A stretch of DNA of 5,077 nucleotides from a virus: the IMG/VR virus record IMGVR_UViG_3300029843_000124, positions 1 to 5,077 of that record. One strand, written 5' to 3'. The notes under the pieces are model-generated. The model was not told where the DNA came from, did no database searches, and saw only the letters and a list, made by a program, of their open reading frames with translations. Positions 1 to 5,077 of the stretch are shown piece after piece (position 1 is the first letter of the stretch; each line of letters opens with the position of its first letter). The position numbers were made by a program, and so were the translations under genes.

Positions 1-99
1 TAAGCTCGATTCTCAGCAGGATTTACAAGAAGGTTCTTCTCCTGAAGGTCTTTTTTCTGTTGAACCTGCACAAAACATTTCTGAAAGTCCCGACCTTCG
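1..99. repeat. Terminal direct repeat, copy 1 (identical to 4979..5077); assembly overlap of a circular molecule
   Basis: Base-by-base comparison shows taagctcgattctcagcagg...gaaagtcccgaccttcg at both window ends, offset exactly 4978 nt. Confidence 0.95.
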
Positions 100-475
100 C
101 GAAGACTATGTTCCGCAGGAAGATGATTTGCCGTTTGAAGGGAGTTTAACTTCTTATGATGACCGCGCCGCAGATACTCCGGCTTTGTATGCTAATCTCC
201 CTAATGTCTCTAATAGTTTCACTTCTATTATGGATTGGTTTGGTGATACGTTTTTCATCGAACGCTCTGAGACGGTGCACAAGTCCGGCTATACGTCTGA
301 AAGGTACTCCTATAATAGTTCGACTCAACTTATTCAGCTTCCTTATGAGGAGGATTCCACTACTACAACTCAGGTTCTCAACCCGCAAGCTTGCGTTTCT
401 GCTTTGCTTGTTGTCCTTGTCTTCGTTACTACTGTTACTTGGATTAAAAACGCGATTTGGGGGCGCATGAGTTAA
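2..475 (+). CDS. 3' part of the same junction-spanning 204-aa ORF; C-terminal TM helix (ACVSALLVVLVFVTTVTWI) followed by KNAIWGRMS
   Basis: This is the same frame as track ORF 128..475, whose TTG start is an artefact of the linear window. Codons 2..127 are open (KLDSQQDLQEGSSPEGLFSVEPAQNISESPDLREDYVPQEDD). Stop TAA is at 473..475. Confidence 0.75.
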   Translation, partial: KLDSQQDLQEGSSPEGLFSVEPAQNISESPDLREDYVPQEDDLPFEGSLTSYDDRAADTPALYANLPNVSNSFTSIMDWFGDTFFIERSETVHKSGYTSERYSYNSSTQLIQLPYEEDSTTTTQVLNPQACVSALLVVLVFVTTVTWIKNAIWGRMS

Positions 476-588
476 TGGAAATTCTTCCTCTTCAGTATTG
501 TTTCGGAATCTTCTCTGTTCCCGAAGTTGGTTATTTCATTATTTTCGCTGCTGTTTTTTCTATGTTGGTTCTCCTGTTTCGTTCGTGA
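475..588 (+). CDS. 37-aa hydrophobic protein, pVII/pIX-like minor virion or assembly protein candidate
   Basis: ATG at 475 overlaps the preceding TAA (TAATG). Hand translation gives MEILPLQYCFGIFSVPEVGYFIIFAAVFSMLVLLFRS, with stop TGA at 586..588. It has one TM-length hydrophobic segment. It is below the ORF-track size cutoff. The SD is weak (GGGGG at 459..463). Confidence 0.5.
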   Translation: MEILPLQYCFGIFSVPEVGYFIIFAAVFSMLVLLFRS

Positions 589-686
589 CAGGTGCCATAA
601 ATATTTTTTTGAAAGGGTGATGACTTCAGGCCGCTACGTCTATTCTCGCTACGCTGCTTTCCTTGGTCGGTGAGTTCTTTACATCG

Positions 687-815
687 ATGGTTACGTGGAT
701 GGGTCAGCTCATTGATTTTTATGAGTCCCAGCCTATTCTTCTCGTCTTTGTTATTCTCACTATCGCGGGTATCGTTCTCCGGATTCTTCGTCGCTGGATT
801 CCCGGTCGTAGTTAA
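687..815 (+). CDS. 42-aa protein with major-coat-protein (pVIII/Pf3-coat-like) architecture
   Basis: Hand translation gives MVTWMGQLIDFYESQPILLVFVILTIAGIVLRILRRWIPGRS. It has an acidic N-terminal part (D10, E13), a hydrophobic core and four Arg in the C-terminal tail, which is the classic inovirus coat layout without a signal peptide (as in Pf3). A strong terminator follows immediately, as after Ff gene VIII. GGTGAG at 669..674 is a possible SD 12 nt upstream. The start is uncertain: the frame is open back to 624, with alternatives TTG 663 and ATG 699. Confidence 0.55.
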   Translation: MVTWMGQLIDFYESQPILLVFVILTIAGIVLRILRRWIPGRS

Positions 816-824
816 ACGTTGAGA

Positions 825-866
825 GAAAACGCCGCCGACCATTTTAATGGTCGGCGACGTTTTCGC
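825..866 (+). terminator. Rho-independent terminator (A-tract / long GC hairpin / T-tract)
   Basis: gaaaacgccgccgaccat-ttta-atggtcggcgacgttttc. The arms 825..842 and 847..864 pair with a single C:A mismatch (832:857). The upstream AAAA pairs with the downstream TTTT. It sits 10 nt after the stop of the coat-like ORF. Confidence 0.7.
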
Positions 867-887
867 CTTTAGAAAGGATTATTTGTT

Positions 888-1511
888 ATGCTTTATGGTC
901 TTCTTATTTTTTGCATTTGCTGGCTTTTTGTTTATATCGATAACTATTGCAAAAACCCCTACAAACTTGAGGCTGTTGTTGGTTCAAAAGGCTCAGGCAA
1001 ATCTCTGTATATGTCTCGCGTTGCTAATAAGTGGCTTCGTTCTAATAAGGGGCTTATATATAGCAATATGGGTATTGGTTATGAGTTAGAGTCGGAATAT
1101 TGGCAACAGACCTTTCTCCCTGATTCCCTTATTCTTATTGATGAAATAGGCGTTCTTCATTCCAACCGCGACTTCAAAAGTATGCCCCGAGAAGCTGTCG
1201 AGTTTTTCAAGATGCAACGCAAGTATCACTTGACTATTATTGTATCGTCTCAGACCATGGACTTTGACAAAAAGATCCGTGACCTTTGCGACCGCATTTA
1301 CCTTTGCAACCGCATTGGCTGGTTCTGCCGTCTTACTCCTTATCGCTCTTGCATTGCTATGGAGCATCGCCCTGAGGGAGGTCAAGAGCTGGTCAACACG
1401 GTGCGCAAGGCAGGCCGGGCAAGGTGGTATACTATCCCCAAGTCCGTGAAGCAGGTAAGTGCTTTAGAATACGATACAGAGCAGGTTATCAGCAAGACCC
1501 CATCTAAATAA
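888..1511 (+). CDS. Zot / gene I (pI)-family P-loop NTPase, assembly/extrusion ATPase; short form (207 aa) with N-terminal TM helix
   Basis: Walker A GSKGSGKS is at 981..1004 and Walker B LILIDE at 1128..1145. The downstream block QRKYHLTIIVSSQTMDFDKKIRDLCDRIY resembles the Zot-family HRHxGxDIxxxTQ...ID..IR block. SD AAAGGA is at 873..878, 9 nt before the ATG. Residues 1-17 (MLYGLLIFCICWLFVYI) are a hydrophobic helix. Confidence 0.85.
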   Translation: MLYGLLIFCICWLFVYIDNYCKNPYKLEAVVGSKGSGKSLYMSRVANKWLRSNKGLIYSNMGIGYELESEYWQQTFLPDSLILIDEIGVLHSNRDFKSMPREAVEFFKMQRKYHLTIIVSSQTMDFDKKIRDLCDRIYLCNRIGWFCRLTPYRSCIAMEHRPEGGQELVNTVRKAGRARWYTIPKSVKQVSALEYDTEQVISKTPSK

Positions 1512-1518
1512 AAAACTT

Positions 1519-1559
1519 CCCCCCGTGCCCTTTAGGGTCAGGGGGGTTGTTTTTTTTTT
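1519..1559 (+). terminator. Rho-independent terminator
   Basis: The CCCCCC (1519..1524) and GGGGGG (1541..1546) stem has an inner ccct/aggg pairing. It is followed by ttg plus a run of ten T (1550..1559). It begins 8 nt after the Zot-like stop codon. Confidence 0.85.
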
Positions 1560-1613
1560 AGCAGTTGCTACGTTTATTCACGCGATAGCGTCTTCACCGC
1601 GTCCCCCGTCCCC

Positions 1614-1632
1614 GCAAGGGCAAAGCCCTTGC
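1614..1632 (+). promoter_or_regulatory. Perfect 8-bp hairpin in the intergenic region (candidate ssDNA origin/packaging element)
   Basis: GCAAGGGC-aaa-GCCCTTGC. The 3' arm is part of a tandem GCCCTT GCCCTT (1625..1636). Confidence 0.5.
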
Positions 1633-1693
1633 CCTTCCAAAACAGGCTTGCAGGGTCTTCCGATACGTAGTGTCTGTCGTGGCGGCGGGAGGC

Positions 1694-1720
1694 GGTGGGC
1701 GTGCATGTAATACGCCCACC
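1694..1720 (+). promoter_or_regulatory. Perfect 9-bp GC-rich hairpin with 9-nt loop (candidate plus-strand origin / Rep nick-site stem-loop)
   Basis: GGTGGGCGT-gcatgtaat-ACGCCCACC, followed by CTTTTCC. It is immediately preceded by tandem GGCGGCGGGA / GGCGGTGGGC repeats (1681..1700). It lies 17 nt upstream of the promoter -35 element. Confidence 0.5.
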
Positions 1721-1736
1721 CTTTTCCAATTTCCTC

Positions 1737-1765
1737 TTGACAGCTCCTTCATATTGTGGTAACAT
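1737..1765 (+). promoter_or_regulatory. Sigma-70/SigA-type promoter for the rep-ssb operon
   Basis: The -35 is TTGACA (1737..1742, perfect consensus). The spacer is exactly 17 nt and contains a TGTG (TRTG) extended -10 element at 1755..1758. The -10 is TAACAT (1760..1765). It lies about 32 nt upstream of the rep ATG. Confidence 0.7.
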
Positions 1766-1796
1766 TTAGCCATGGTAGTGAAAGGTGGTTTCTTAT

Positions 1797-2930
1797 ATGA
1801 AAACGGTTGTTAAGCTTGATTATGCTACGTTAGCTTTTGAGCAAGGTTCGATTTCTATTTCCATGATTGAAAATGCGCTTGCTCAGTGCGATTTACATTT
1901 TTCGCAGACTTCTAACGCAAGTGAGAATTCCCCATACAATTCCCCTGCTGGCCTTTTCTTTAAGCCGAACAACGGCGCGAAACAGGCTCCGCACTCTTTG
2001 CAAGTGTCTGGGCATGGTTGTGAGCTTTTCCGCTCCACCTTGCCGCGTCTCGCGTCGCTGATGAAAGGACATGATTTCGGCCATTTTTCCCGTCTTGACT
2101 TTTGTTTTGACGTTGTTATGACAAAGCAACGTTGGCGCGAGTTTTATCTGGGTGTCATTTCTGCTTCTGTTGATGAGATGAACAACCCTGAAAAAGCCCG
2201 AAAGGTTCGTAAGATTATGTATCAGGGCTATGGCGATTCTACTACCGTTTATATCGGTCGCAGAACGTCTTCCGCGGTCTTCTGTCGCATTTATAATAAA
2301 TCGCTTCAAGACCCCGAAAAAAAGCTTTGTGTCGCTTCTGGTGAGTTTCTGGACTGCCCTGATGATTCCTATATCATTCGTTATGAGATGGAATTGAAAT
2401 TTACTTCTCGTGTCCGTTCTGGTTCTCGTTCCGTCTATGACCCTTCTCCGCTTTTCTGGTTTTACTATGAAGACCCTGATAAGCTTTTCGCTTATCTTCG
2501 TAAAGTTTGGAATCGTTACGGAAATGAATTTCTTCTTCCCGATGGCTGGGACGATATGGAGTTCGTGACCGATATTGTAGCCCGTGGCATTCATTACACT
2601 GATGATTCTTGTCATCCCCTTAGCGCTGACCTTGCTAAAAAGTTCTTCGTTTCTATCCATACTGAAGAGCAAAAAATGTCCTACGTAGCTAATGTGTTCG
2701 GTCATCGGATTATTGATATTTTGCTTTATCGTCCTGAGCTCCTTTTACTCGCTTGTTTTAAGTGGGAGCAGTTCTATGACGAGCGTCTCCCGTTCTCCCC
2801 TATGGCTTTGATACAGGAAGTTGCGCAATTCTCGGAATCTTCCCGCATTGCCGTTGAGGAATTTGCCGAAGTTGCTGATGACCCCTCTCCCTTTAGTGAA
2901 GTCGGGTTTGATGATATAACTTTATTCTAA
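1797..2930 (+). CDS. Rolling-circle replication initiation protein, Rep_trans (pT181 RepC / CTXphi RstA-like) family
   Basis: Motifs typical of the Rep_trans family as I recall it: N-terminal KLDYATLAF, LQVSGHGCELF, RLDFCFD (2091..2111), TVYIGRRTSSAVFCRIYNK and IIRYEMELK. I prefer ATG 1797 over the track's GTG 1785, because SD AAGGTGG (1782..1788) overlaps the GTG and sits 8 nt before the ATG. That gives 377 aa. Confidence 0.8.
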   Translation: MKTVVKLDYATLAFEQGSISISMIENALAQCDLHFSQTSNASENSPYNSPAGLFFKPNNGAKQAPHSLQVSGHGCELFRSTLPRLASLMKGHDFGHFSRLDFCFDVVMTKQRWREFYLGVISASVDEMNNPEKARKVRKIMYQGYGDSTTVYIGRRTSSAVFCRIYNKSLQDPEKKLCVASGEFLDCPDDSYIIRYEMELKFTSRVRSGSRSVYDPSPLFWFYYEDPDKLFAYLRKVWNRYGNEFLLPDGWDDMEFVTDIVARGIHYTDDSCHPLSADLAKKFFVSIHTEEQKMSYVANVFGHRIIDILLYRPELLLLACFKWEQFYDERLPFSPMALIQEVAQFSESSRIAVEEFAEVADDPSPFSEVGFDDITLF

Positions 2931-2948
2931 TGAAAGGATGGTCGCTCT

Positions 2949-3191
2949 ATGAAAGTTACTGTAGTTGGTAAGTCCCGCCGCGCTGGCACTTCTAAGCAGG
3001 GCAAAGCCTATGATTTTACTACTCTTATGGCCGAATATTCGATGCGTGCAAACGATGACAATGATGGTGTGCAGGTTGATAGAATCAATGTTGACGCTCG
3101 TATGATGCCGTATGCGCTTATTGTTGTCGGCACTACGTATGACCTCGACTTTGACCGTAACGGGTTTCTTCTCGGAATTGAGGAAGTTTAA
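2949..3191 (+). CDS. Gene V-like ssDNA-binding protein (80 aa)
   Basis: Residues 10-23 (RRAGTSKQGKAYDF) match the DNA-binding wing of M13 gVp (TRSGVSRQGKPYSL) and Pf3 SSB (RQGTSAKGNPYTF). Its size and its position directly after rep are canonical. SD GAAAGGA is at 2932..2938. Confidence 0.8.
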   Translation: MKVTVVGKSRRAGTSKQGKAYDFTTLMAEYSMRANDDNDGVQVDRINVDARMMPYALIVVGTTYDLDFDRNGFLLGIEEV

Positions 3192-3197
3192 CTTCCT
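3181..3197 (+). promoter_or_regulatory. Stem-loop spanning the ssb stop codon (possible weak attenuator/terminator)
   Basis: AGGAAGT-tta-ACTTCCT is a perfect 7-bp stem. The TAA stop (3189..3191) lies at the loop/3'-arm boundary. It is followed by TTTGTT. Confidence 0.35.
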
Positions 3198-3226
3198 TTG
3201 TTCAAACTCCATTTCATTACCTATGG

Positions 3227-3246
3227 GAGAGCGCTTCGCCGCTCTC
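3227..3246 (+). promoter_or_regulatory. Hairpin 4 nt upstream of the tRNA 5' end (possible processing/leader structure)
   Basis: GAGAGCG-cttcgc-CGCTCTC is a perfect 7-bp stem. Confidence 0.35.
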
Positions 3247-3250
3247 ACAT

Positions 3251-3324
3251 GGCGGGGTGGTGCAATGGTAGCACGTCACACTCTGAATGTGAAACTTCTG
3301 GTTCGAATCCAGACCCCGCAACCA
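3251..3324 (+). tRNA. tRNA-Gln (anticodon CUG), 74 nt with genomically encoded CCA
   Basis: Cloverleaf folded by hand. Acceptor is GGCGGGG / CCCCGCA (six Watson-Crick pairs, G1:A72 unpaired), then T8. D stem is GTGC/GCAC with loop AATGGTA. Anticodon stem is TCACA/TGTGA with loop C-T-CTG-A-A. Variable loop is AACT. T stem is TCTGG/CCAGA with loop TTCGAAT. Discriminator is A3321 and CCA is at 3322..3324. Confidence 0.85.
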
Positions 3325-3371
3325 TTACGGATTGACCTCCGTTATTCGATGCCGTGAAAGGTGGTGTCTAA

Positions 3372-4550
3372 GTGATGAAAAAGAAGCGGTGCTTATTTAA
3401 GCGCTTCGCCGCCTTTGTCGCGTCTTTGATTCTTGTTTTCTCTCTTTCTGTTCCTGCCTTTGCCGTATCTGATACGGCAGCTGATATGCCCTCTCTTGAT
3501 GATTTTTATCGTCATCATGGTTCTTGGTTTGTTTGGCGTAAATTTAATTATCTTGGTGTAGATTACTTAGAACTTCTTTGCTCTCCTATTGCTGTATCTG
3601 GCTCTTCTTATACATTGCCGTATTCTATTTCTTATTCTACGAATGCGTTTGATGTTAATTATCAAGCTAATAGTTCTGACAAAACTTATGCTTATGCTTG
3701 CGCTTTTCCTTATCCTCTTCGTGGTGCTTCTGGTCTTTGGTCTGAACTTCCCTCTTTCTCTGTTGGTTCTGGCATTTCCGCTGAAACTTCTGTTGTCCGC
3801 GTTTATTCTTCTTCTGGGCAAGCGTCTGGCACTTATTGTTTTTTAACTTCTTCCTTTAGTCTTTCAGACCGTAATCTTTCTTTCGGTAATACTGCCGGTT
3901 CTTCTTCTGGTTCTTCTACCGATACTTTTGATGTTCTTAGTTTATCTTCCCCCTTTTATTCTTATCCTTTTGCATTTCGTCAGATTTCTTCATCTAATGT
4001 AACTGGCTATAGTTTACAGGGTGGTGCCTCTTCTTTTATTGTTCCTCCTGATAATTATTCTGCTGTTCGGTATATCGATCTCAGCTCTAATCGTTATCTT
4101 TTAAAGACTAGTTCTTTTGTTCCTTATCCCTCTGGGTATACTGTCCCTTCTTCTGATATCGGTTTTGTCTTTGTTCGAAAGCCTTCTAATTCTTTTGTTA
4201 CTTCTGCTTCTGACTTTAATACTACGGGTTCTTTCGCTTTTTCTCTCCTTGTTCCTGTTTCTCGTCTTCCTGAAGTTAAGCTTGGAGATTGGCTTTCCGA
4301 TTCCCCCGAGGATTTGCAGGATGCCATTACTAATGAATTTGGCATTGATTCCGGTACTCTAAAAGACTCCAAGGATAACTTGAATTCTTGGAATTCTGCT
4401 TCATCCGTAGATTCAGATATTGCTTCCGGTGCTTCTGGTCTTCTTGGCGGTCTTTTTCAGAATTTAGGCACGTTTCTCTTTTCTGTTTCTCTCCTTTGCT
4501 TTGGTGCTGTTGTTCTCCGAATGTTCATTAGAAAGGCGGTTGACGGATGA
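3372..4550 (+). CDS. pIII-like adsorption / minor coat protein: secreted, Ser-rich, C-terminally membrane-anchored (392 aa)
   Basis: The signal peptide is MMKKKRCLFKRFAAFVASLILVFSLSVPAFA|VSD (basic n-region, long h-region, AFA cleavage motif). There is a Gly/Ser linker (GNTAGSSSGSSTD). The C-terminal anchor plus basic tail (LGTFLFSVSLLCFGAVVLRMFIRKAVDG) has the same layout as Ff pIII. SD GAAAGGTGG is at 3356..3364. The start may be GTG 3372 or ATG 3375. The function call is by architecture only. Confidence 0.65.
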   Translation: MMKKKRCLFKRFAAFVASLILVFSLSVPAFAVSDTAADMPSLDDFYRHHGSWFVWRKFNYLGVDYLELLCSPIAVSGSSYTLPYSISYSTNAFDVNYQANSSDKTYAYACAFPYPLRGASGLWSELPSFSVGSGISAETSVVRVYSSSGQASGTYCFLTSSFSLSDRNLSFGNTAGSSSGSSTDTFDVLSLSSPFYSYPFAFRQISSSNVTGYSLQGGASSFIVPPDNYSAVRYIDLSSNRYLLKTSSFVPYPSGYTVPSSDIGFVFVRKPSNSFVTSASDFNTTGSFAFSLLVPVSRLPEVKLGDWLSDSPEDLQDAITNEFGIDSGTLKDSKDNLNSWNSASSVDSDIASGASGLLGGLFQNLGTFLFSVSLLCFGAVVLRMFIRKAVDG

Positions 4551-4678
4551 GTTTTCTTGATTTCTTCAAATCAGTTTTTGGCCTTTTCGGTTCTGGTGGC
4601 GCTCTCGTTATTGCCGTTGTCGTTTTTCTTGTCGGTCTTGGTATTTATAAGTTCGTTAAGGATTGGTTGCCATGGTAG
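4547..4678 (+). CDS. 43-aa single-TM protein; second coat-protein-like / minor virion protein candidate
   Basis: The ATG overlaps the upstream stop (ATGA at 4547..4550). SD GAAAGGCGG is at 4531..4539. Hand translation gives MSFLDFFKSVFGLFGSGGALVIAVVVFLVGLGIYKFVKDWLPW, with stop TAG at 4676..4678. It is below the ORF-track cutoff. Confidence 0.6.
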   Translation: MSFLDFFKSVFGLFGSGGALVIAVVVFLVGLGIYKFVKDWLPW

Positions 4679-4839
4679 ACTTTGTTTCGGCTCTTGGTGT
4701 TTTTACGTCGTTTATTGCTAATGTTCTTTCTATTTCCTTTTTTGGCTTTGGTACTTTTGGCAATTTTATTTTGGTTTGTCTTCTGCTTTCGCTTGTTGGC
4801 TTTGTTCTCCGTGGCCTTTGGGATGGAGGTGATAAATAA
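4672..4839 (+). CDS. 55-aa predicted two-TM-segment protein; pVI-like minor virion/assembly protein candidate
   Basis: ATG 4672 overlaps the previous stop (ATGGTAG). SD AAGGA is at 4658..4662, 9 nt upstream. Hand translation gives MVDFVSALGVFTSFIANVLSISFFGFGTFGNFILVCLLLSLVGFVLRGLWDGGDK. Stop TAA at 4837..4839 overlaps the next ATG. Confidence 0.6.
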   Translation: MVDFVSALGVFTSFIANVLSISFFGFGTFGNFILVCLLLSLVGFVLRGLWDGGDK

Positions 4840-5077
4840 TGGAAATTCCTACTATTATTAAAACTTGGGTTGATACTGACGGCGTTACTGTCTATACAGT
4901 GCAGTATAAAGACGGTAGTACCTGTGACATGACAGTCCAGCAGTACGATTATCTTAAGGCATCCGCCGACGCTGTTGCTAAGCTCGATTCTCAGCAGGAT
5001 TTACAAGAAGGTTCTTCTCCTGAAGGTCTTTTTTCTGTTGAACCTGCACAAAACATTTCTGAAAGTCCCGACCTTCG
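4839..5077 (+). CDS. 5' part of a junction-spanning ORF (204 aa in the circle: 4839..4978 joined to 1..475); hypothetical tail-anchored acidic protein
   Basis: ATG at 4839 overlaps the upstream stop (TAATG). A perfect SD GGAGGTGA lies at 4825..4832, 6 nt upstream. I translated the frame by hand with no stops to the window end, and it continues in phase at position 2. N-terminus is MEIPTIIKTWVDTDGVTVYTVQYKDGSTCDMTVQQYDYLKASADAVAKLDSQQDLQEGSS... Confidence 0.75.
   Translation, partial: MEIPTIIKTWVDTDGVTVYTVQYKDGSTCDMTVQQYDYLKASADAVAKLDSQQDLQEGSSPEGLFSVEPAQNISESPDL
4979..5077. repeat. Terminal direct repeat, copy 2 (identical to 1..99)
   Basis: Same 99 nt as 1..99. The repeat ends exactly at the window edges, which is typical of a circular contig reported with k-mer overlap. 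Confidence 0.95.

Follow-up and report, generated by a model that had tools for sequence, protein, structure and literature searches.

A tRNA-Gln-derived tRNA with an initiator-type acceptor end in a 5-kb gut inovirus, and its possible role in starting coat protein translation at a non-AUG codon

The start codon of bacterial genes is taken to be set by the cell's one initiator tRNA(CAU). To our knowledge, initiation at codons unrelated to AUG (CAG, CAU, ACU, ACG) is known only from engineered initiator tRNAs with mutated anticodons, and these are the closest systems in the literature to the locus described here. The locus lies in a stretch of 5,077 nucleotides from a virus (IMG/VR record IMGVR_UViG_3300029843_000124, positions 1 to 5,077), which we call the window. 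It represents the complete circular genome of a filamentous phage (inovirus) of 4978 bp with a terminal overlap of 99 nt, as bases 1-99 recur at 4979-5077. The window contains a 74-nt tRNA gene with the anticodon CUG (3251-3324, plus strand) and a gene for a 62-aa major-coat-like protein (627-815, plus strand), which has a good Shine-Dalgarno (SD) sequence and, at the distance of a start codon, the codon CAG. We propose, with a probability of roughly 0.6, that the phage encodes an initiator or initiator-like tRNA that starts the translation of its coat protein at this private non-AUG codon.

The engineered initiators are anticodon mutants of the Escherichia coli tRNA-fMet (CUA, GAC, AAC and others) that combine a non-CAU anticodon with the 1×72 mismatch, A73, G2:C71 and C3:G70. 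They start at the complementary non-AUG codon (UAG, GUC) when it is placed at a normal distance from the SD, and the CUA mutant, which is charged with Gln, still initiates (PMC2268962, PMC11744186). The mismatch at the acceptor end is a determinant for the formyltransferase, and an initiator mutated to G72G73 is not formylated (PMC2268962). The window tRNA shares all these acceptor-end features, as well as a complementary codon at a normal SD distance. It differs in being natural and in its body, as the laboratory constructs were built on tRNA-fMet and kept the three G:C pairs of its anticodon stem, whereas the window copy has neither these pairs nor A11:U24 and is a tRNA-Gln altered at positions 1 and 73. 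Some gut phages encode suppressor tRNAs that recode stop codons in late genes. There, too, a viral tRNA changes the meaning of one codon, and a subset of the viral genes can be read only with it, but those tRNAs act in elongation at in-frame stops, whereas the system proposed here would concern the start codon of a single structural gene and a tRNA with initiator-type features. The phage tRNAs treated in PMC10264068, which are explained by codon compensation or by evasion of anticodon nucleases, are likewise tRNA genes in phage genomes, but they are elongators of large tailed phages, while the window phage has 5 kb, shows no codon-usage signal and carries an anticodon that tracks one codon. 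A full-text literature search turned up no report of a tRNA in an inovirus and none of a naturally retargeted initiator tRNA, and GenBank relatives leave the tRNA unannotated. Thus far, the statement of the first-pass annotation, made from the sequence alone, that such a tRNA gene has no known precedent holds.

The tRNA gene was called by ARAGORN at 3251-3324 on the plus strand, within the gap between an ssb-like gene (2949-3191) and a pIII-like gene (3372-4550). The Rfam model RF00005 matched it over its full length with 60.7 bits (gathering score 29, E 9e-12). The first-pass annotation had described a complete, canonical-looking tRNA-Gln(CUG) in an inovirus of about 5 kb, and both the gene and the details given for its fold and location were confirmed: G1 stands unpaired opposite A72, the T loop is TTCGAAT, the anticodon loop has U33 and A37, and A73 is followed by an encoded CCA. 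The anticodon, CTG in the DNA and reading CAG, occupies 3283-3285 on the plus strand (from position 33 of the tRNA in the ARAGORN count) and is the same in all copies of the window clade. The gene was present in 33 of 37 relatives from IMG/VR, the remaining four being short contigs, in all four close GenBank relatives, and, at the same position, in 65 of the 67 window-clade contigs that are 4900 nt or longer. Of the other two, L200 is a contig of 2.2x coverage with unrelated sequence in place of the D arm, and L181 is an integrated copy in which the tRNA region lies beyond the contig end. That 65 independent assemblies show the same arrangement makes a chimeric assembly at 3192-3371 very unlikely.

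We tested the covariation of the cloverleaf on 40 distinct homologous tRNA sequences, using pairing partners slid out of register and 500 shuffles as controls. The cells of the cloverleaf were paired in 92.1% of cases, compared to 35-52% with slid partners, and compensatory changes, on both sides of a pair, were seen in 14 of the 21 pairs; none of the 500 shuffles matched any of the observed measures. CCA is encoded in every phage copy. As far as the tRNA itself is concerned, it is certain that it is real and that it is selected as a cloverleaf.

To trace the origin of the tRNA, its 5′ half together with the CUG anticodon loop was searched for in 185,579 species genomes. The scan yielded 15 cellular tRNA-Gln(CUG) genes from Patescibacteria, Gammaproteobacteria, Chloroflexi and others, which have in common with the window tRNA the anticodon, the D arm, the T arm and acceptor pairs 2-7; the tRNA-Gln(CUG) of Pacebacteria is identical to it at 57 of 61 positions outside the anticodon stem. 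The difference lies at the acceptor end. All 15 cellular homologues have U1:A72 and G73, whereas 1:72 is unpaired in 40 of the 40 distinct phage sequences, with G or C at position 1; L252 has A there, and no phage copy has U. At position 73, the phage copies of the CUG class all have A, and the Thr-type classes described below have U or C. G2:C71 is found in 40 and C3:G70 in 38 of the 40. Written out, the cellular UGCGGGG...CCCCGCA-G corresponds to (C/G)GCGGGG...CCCCGCA-A in the phages, and the variants with C1 have the same acceptor end as the E. coli initiator tRNA, CGCGGGG...CCCCGCA-A-CCA (metY sequence read from L146). Over the full length, the E. coli tRNAs nearest to the window tRNA are metY, encoded between argG and rimP, and those of the metZWV triplet beside amiC; no glutamine tRNA is among them. 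Judged by these comparisons, the tRNA derives from tRNA-Gln(CUG), and its acceptor end has been altered to the bacterial initiator type by changes at positions 1 and 73. The unpaired 1:72 and A73, which the first-pass annotation had flagged, turned out to be the key features; its view that an open 1:72 fits Gln identity does not agree with the U1:A72 and G73 of the cellular homologues. With respect to an elongator tRNA-Gln, the window tRNA therefore has the anticodon and a homologous body and lacks U1:A72 and G73; with respect to an initiator, it has the unpaired 1:72, A73, G2:C71 and C3:G70, together with a cognate codon at start distance from an SD and at the 5′ end of an open reading frame (ORF). 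An origin from an initiator tRNA was also considered, as the 5′ half recurs in phage tRNA-Met(CAU) with C1×A72 and three G:C pairs, and was dropped, because the whole body is that of cellular tRNA-Gln(CUG).

The coat-like gene is located directly upstream of zot and was recognized by its coding signature and by homology to coat-like proteins of Dulem and bajarodino viruses. Its 62-aa product has a hydrophobic helix and a basic C-terminus (RILRRWIPGRS) and no match in the Pfam or PHROG families. By its size, hydrophobic core, basic C-terminus, gene position and the hairpin that follows, it has the profile of a major coat protein. This hairpin (825-864), directly after the coat-like gene and before zot, is a near-perfect one of 19 bp (GAAAACGCCGCCGACCATT / AATGGTCGGCGACGTTTTC). 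This is reminiscent of the Ff phages, in which the major coat gene is followed by a terminator or attenuator; in Rfam the hairpin obtained only weak, sub-threshold matches, to small RNA models that contain terminators, on the minus strand.

The frame of the gene extends back to CAG at 627-629 (plus strand), the codon complementary to the tRNA anticodon. It is invariant in all 91 clade contigs, one or two codons past an in-frame stop, while the codon before it varies (CTT, CAT, TTT). No ATG, GTG or TTG occurs from the in-frame stop or stops at 618-623 up to position 639, and CAG627 is the only invariant codon there. In an alignment of 38 distinct clade sequences, 72% of the codon differences within 639-686 were synonymous in the CAG frame versus 6% and 3% in the other frames, third positions were the most variable, as in the downstream part of the gene, and insertions and deletions were multiples of three. 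The starts that gene finders would choose, TTG663 and ATG687, were rejected, as the coding signature reaches upstream of both; TTG663 is also unconserved, about a dozen relatives having CAG in its place. Readthrough from an upstream ORF was rejected, as two consecutive stops (TGA TGA) precede CAG. Under genetic code 4 or 25, with TGA read as sense, the coat ORF would be longer at its upstream end; this was rejected as well: the long ORFs are free of in-frame TGA, Trp is encoded by TGG, and TGA ends genes in ATGA overlaps.

The genes of the window have strong SD sequences of the Firmicutes type (GAAAGGNGG). That of the coat-like gene, GAAAGGGTG (611-619, plus strand), shows the same motif as those of rep, ssb, pIII and zot. 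From GAAAGG to CAG627 the distance is 10 nt, and the starts of those four genes are 10-11 nt past the same motif. We also aligned the upstream regions to the 3′ end of 16S rRNA, using 70 canonical starts in eight genomes as a reference. The canonical starts had their mode at 7-9 nt from the SD (46 of 70), and the special codon was at 7-9 nt in 11 of 11 genomes, with CAG627 of the window at an aligned spacing of 9. The ATG or GTG triplets found near the special codon have aligned spacings of -4 to +1, and thus lie inside or against the SD. Dulem virus 75, which has no such tRNA, encodes a homologue of the coat-like protein that is also exactly 62 aa long and lines up with it at W24, P36 and the C-terminal RRWxPGR; the gene of this homologue has ATG at the position of the window CAG. 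It is by its invariance, its SD spacing and this register with the ATG of tRNA-less homologues that CAG627-629 is put forward as the start codon.

The comparison was then carried beyond the window clade. The sample was widened through Zot and coat homologues from a large protein database, combined with contig look-ups, in which about 1300 Zot relatives were found; scans of IMG/VR with Zot alignments and with an anticodon-agnostic tRNA pattern added few new lineages. In every genome sampled that has a tRNA at the locus, the first coat gene carries the complementary codon 7-9 nt after the SD. Five anticodon classes were observed: tRNA(CUG) with CAG in the window clade, L005/L239/L245, L160/L163 and L252/L254; tRNA(AGU) with ACT in L234 and L007; tRNA(AUG) with CAT in L235; tRNA(GUG) with CAT in L243/L244; and tRNA(CGU) with ACG in L251. 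The last codon had been predicted before L251 was fetched, from the tRNA(CGU) of its relative L250, which could not itself be scored because the contig is open at the coat start. There is no ATG anywhere near the ACT of L234, and the CAT of L235 follows directly on a stop codon and CTA. The unpaired 1:72 and the encoded CCA are retained in all anticodon classes. In contrast, the complete genomes without the tRNA (L149, L150, L156, L164, L247, L248/L249 and L241/L242) have ATG, GTG or TTG at normal spacing; an Rfam scan of the tRNA-less L148-L150, L247 and L248 reported no tRNA. As the frequencies of the codons concerned are low (about 0.015 for CAG, 0.02-0.04 for ACT and about 0.01 for CAT), the matching of four codon classes is improbable by chance, about 1e-6 even when three positions are allowed for each. 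CAG and CAT are one base apart, and so are the corresponding anticodons. We consider it very likely that the tRNA is linked to the coat start codon.

The tRNAs of the different anticodon classes obtained Rfam scores of 35-61 bits, all above the threshold except the L005 type. The latter (L005/L006/L239) was called by ARAGORN, is below the Rfam threshold and has C at position 37. The tRNA of L007 looks degenerate (29 bits), and a better copy in L234 (43 bits) indicates that the AGU class is genuine. Some of the tRNAs have odd anticodon loops, in which U33 has given way to G or C, or position 37 is a pyrimidine, which is unusual in elongators (L011 5134-5207, L252 7055-7128, L005 1650-1723, L235 2828-2901 and L250 3934-4007). 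Furthermore, the L005/L007 lineage has two tandem paralogous coat-like genes (L005 4323-4505 and 4521-4685; likewise L007, L234, L235, L239, L243 and L245). The non-canonical start is found in the first of them only, while the second always begins with ATG, GTG or TTG.

For the proposed initiator we infer a route that comprises excision from the operon transcript, aminoacylation, formylation and delivery to the P site. The tRNA would be transcribed as part of one operon, rep-ssb-tRNA-pIII-...-coat-zot, from whose RNA RNase P and 3′ processing would release it; CCA is already encoded. By its anticodon and its Gln-like body, the CUG-class tRNA would most likely be charged with Gln. The main anticodon elements read by the glutaminyl-tRNA synthetase (GlnRS) are U35 and G36. 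These are kept in the AUG and GUG classes, which bears on their possible charging with Gln. The open 1:72 end would make the tRNA a substrate of the formyltransferase and a poor substrate of EF-Tu, and it would next be delivered to the ribosomal P site at CAG627-629, which stands at a normal distance from the strong SD. Initiation there would produce the 62-aa major-coat-like protein from a gene with no usable ATG, GTG or TTG, and coat synthesis would thus depend on the phage's own tRNA, with CAG serving as a 'private start codon'. The benefit may lie in the timing or insulation of coat synthesis: one possibility is that the tRNA, being upstream of the structural genes in the same transcript, gates or insulates the synthesis of the most abundant virion protein.

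Such an initiator would explain jointly the conserved tRNA in a 5-kb genome, the specific unpairing of 1:72 and the altered position 73, the lack of a start codon in a coat gene whose SD is good, and the covariation of anticodon and codon. It is the simplest model that covers everything found and, as an explanation built on sequence comparison, the best but an unproven one. For the group as a whole, we give slightly better than even odds to a broader statement, namely that a family of very small filamentous phages of gut Clostridia runs a natural orthogonal initiation system, composed of its own initiator-type tRNA and a complementary non-AUG coat start, in which the anticodon/codon pair was switched several times and those lineages that lost the tRNA reverted to ATG, GTG or TTG.

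Several observations weigh against an initiator role. While the acceptor end of the C1 variants is identical to that of tRNA-fMet (metY, metZWV), and 1×72 is unpaired in both, other initiator features are missing. A11:U24 is a criterion for bacterial initiator tRNAs, along with the anticodon CAU; the window tRNA has CUG, and U11:A24, the elongator type, is found in 40 of the 40 distinct phage sequences. In place of the three G:C pairs 29:41, 30:40 and 31:39 (G29-G31:C39-C41), the window anticodon stem is UCACA/UGUGA, with C30:G40, and no classes but AUG and GUG (L235, L243) have all three pairs. In E. coli, an initiator mutated to C30:G40 is defective in P-site binding (PMC2268962), G30:C40 is the critical pair of the anticodon stem (PMC5389676), and a 3GC mutant initiates only under special conditions (PMC6393288). 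The start regions also leave room for doubt. An in-frame GTG lies inside the SD in L005, L239, L245, L163, L243 and L252, an in-frame TTG lies 5 nt after the SD in L251, and an in-frame ATG lies 1 nt after it in L007, so that a canonical start is conceivable in these genomes; in the window clade, an out-of-frame ATG next to the SD is conserved. In addition, the AGU and CGU classes have no obvious charging enzyme, the independent evolutionary switches are few (at least three codon changes), and we infer the host only indirectly.

The same ATG and the elongator-like anticodon stem would suit a different role, in which the tRNA decodes the 5′-most coat codon without being an initiator. Ribosomes would start at an ATG or GTG at the SD and then undergo a +1 shift onto the cognate codon, driven by an abundant phage tRNA, as in Ty3, or the tRNA would enter the A site of a ribosome positioned by the SD. 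Such a mechanism would account for the covariation of anticodon and codon as well as initiation does, and candidate triplets do exist, as the out-of-frame ATG of the window clade (at 620, and at 617 in relatives) stands beside the SD and other lineages have ATG or GTG near it. However, at the spacings given above these triplets are too near to the SD, their frame relative to the coat gene varies from lineage to lineage, L234 has none of them, and the putative shift site is slippery in few genomes (L001, L024), the window (ACT T) not being one of them. The universally unpaired 1:72, a mark of initiators (PMC2268962 and work cited there), would be left unexplained, and as host tRNAs already read CAG, ACU and CAU in elongation, no special elongator would be needed. 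We regard this alternative as unlikely. It is in our view quite improbable that, as had been put forward in the first-pass annotation, the tRNA is an ordinary elongator tRNA-Gln and adds to the CAG-decoding capacity of a host with little tRNA-Gln(CUG) of its own. The body is clearly of the tRNA-Gln type, codon compensation is the commonest explanation offered for phage tRNAs (PMC10264068), and CAG exceeds CAA by 28 to 15 over all genes of the window (1456 codons); the earlier hand count of 18 to 12 in the three largest ORFs was right in tendency, the exact figure being 14 to 11. Nevertheless, the ratio is about the same in tRNA-less relatives (23:12, 30:19 and 47:26) and in relatives whose tRNA reads ACU, ACG or CAU, the anticodon switches among close relatives with no change in codon usage, and only about 28 CAG codons are at stake. 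Supplementation would explain neither the universal loss of U1:A72 and G73 nor an invariant CAG at the start position of a gene that has no canonical start.

Less probable still is that the tRNA serves mainly as a signal for RNA processing, by which RNase P and 3′-end cleavage would split the rep-ssb part from the structural mRNA, or acts at the DNA level, through a cloverleaf formed in the packaged strand that could be, for instance, a minus-strand origin, a priming role that the first-pass annotation had also raised. The tRNA is one part of the single operon and lacks its own promoter; it is always directly upstream of the SD of the pIII-like gene, with hairpins on its flanks, and its processing would necessarily cut the polycistronic RNA at this place. 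Yet neither function requires a particular anticodon, while the anticodon tracks the coat start codon, and neither has need of the invariant encoded CCA or of specific states at 1:72 and 73; as an origin, the GC-rich non-coding stretch at 1556-1735 is the better candidate. Processing is probably a side effect and not the reason why the tRNA exists. Many temperate elements integrate into tRNA genes, and integrated copies of these phages do exist, so that the tRNA could have been a captured host gene marking the integration site, as a phage attachment site (attP) or its remnant. This was another early suggestion, and it is refuted for the copies examined. In a human-gut contig of 50.7 kb (L207), the phage copy is integrated between 11-bp direct repeats, CATCCCCTTAG (L207 778-788 and 5797-5807). 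This attachment core, which is not part of the tRNA, was located by comparing the L207 junction sequences with the window; it corresponds to 2613-2623 (plus strand), inside the rep coding region, so that integration, which may be carried out by Rep or by a host recombinase, splits rep, and the tRNA is complete and internal. It is internal also in the prophage L252, which lies beside spoIVA in a contig of a spore-former. No integrase is encoded in the window, and no identical host tRNA was found in the 185,579 species genomes, the matches being distant cellular tRNA-Gln genes with U1 and G73; moreover, the compensatory changes in the stems are incompatible with a conserved att core. An attachment function has accordingly next to no probability left.

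If the initiator reading is true, it describes a new kind of natural manipulation of the genetic code, at the initiation step rather than at stop codons, and gives a reason for a genome of 5 kb to spend 74 nt on a tRNA. It would also explain why, in this group of phages, which is abundant in the guts of humans and pigs, gene callers shorten the coat gene or miss it. The change from an elongator to an initiator role through two substitutions at the acceptor end would be a testable case, and synthetic biology would gain naturally evolved orthogonal pairs of initiator and start codon that work in Firmicutes.

All genes of the window are on the plus strand. Besides the coat-like gene they include those for a stand-alone Zot/pI ATPase (zot, 888-1511), a Rep_trans initiator (rep, 1797-2930), the ssb-like protein of 80 aa (2949-3191), the secreted pIII-like protein of 392 aa (3372-4550) and several small membrane proteins. 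A promoter scan reported a sole strong promoter of the sigma-70 type (TTGACA-17-TAACAT with TG; 1737-1765, plus strand) upstream of rep, and a terminator scan an intrinsic terminator after zot (1527-1555, plus strand), which closes the operon. Together, they seem to bracket a single operon that would include both the tRNA and the coat gene. Between the terminator and the promoter, at 1556-1735, lies a GC-rich non-coding stretch in an otherwise T-rich genome, part of which is found again in L005 (5735-5770); it is likely the replication-origin region.

Two hairpins, read from the sequence, flank the tRNA. A GC-rich one (3227-3246, plus strand) ends 4 nt before its 5′ end, and most lineages (L002, L013, L234, L235, L243, L245) have a hairpin of unrelated sequence that ends 3-5 nt before the tRNA. 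A small one, ACGGA-N6-TCCGT, lies just past CCA (3327-3342, plus strand), and the pattern 'aaacggat...tccgt' is kept in clade members. The position and structure of these hairpins are conserved, while their sequence is not. They may be stabilizers of mRNA ends, the 5′ one protecting the 3′ end of the upstream mRNA after cleavage by RNase P, and their conservation suggests that excision of the tRNA also separates the rep-ssb mRNA from that of the structural genes.

The nearest GenBank records are porcine 'Inovirus sp.' genomes with about 81% identity, and relatives of the window phage are common in human-gut metagenomes. MT135290-MT135309 (L001-L007) are porcine inoviruses flagged as 'UNVERIFIED', with few annotated coding sequences that bear microvirus names (protein A, C, F, H); in these records the coat-like gene is unannotated, as is the tRNA. 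No prophage of the window clade was found in GTDB representative genomes. As to the host, the Hsp20 gene that flanks the phage copy in L207 is 81% identical to proteins of Oscillospiraceae metagenome-assembled genomes. This fits the assignment of gut inoviruses with a stand-alone Zot to Clostridiales, based on clustered regularly interspaced short palindromic repeats (PMC8530359).

Initiator-like tRNAs were also seen in other viral contigs. Six small IMG/VR contigs (L052, L056, L060, L085, L086 and L123; 5.6-7.4 kb) carry two to three tRNA genes each, among them an initiator-type tRNA-Met(CAU) with C1×A72 and three G:C pairs; neither the Zot and Rep of the window nor the major capsid protein F of phiX174 resembles anything in them. 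Larger IMG/VR phage contigs, mostly of 20-60 kb, have tRNAs with the same initiator-like 5′ half, an unpaired 1:72 and non-Met anticodons (Arg CCU, Leu CAG and Thr AGU; L046, L048, L053, L055, L061, L066, L075, L092, L108, L116, L119-L120, L141 and L144). These could represent the same retargeting of start codons in tailed phages, in which case the principle would seem to reach beyond inoviruses. The AGU copies among them keep GGG/CCC in the anticodon stem.

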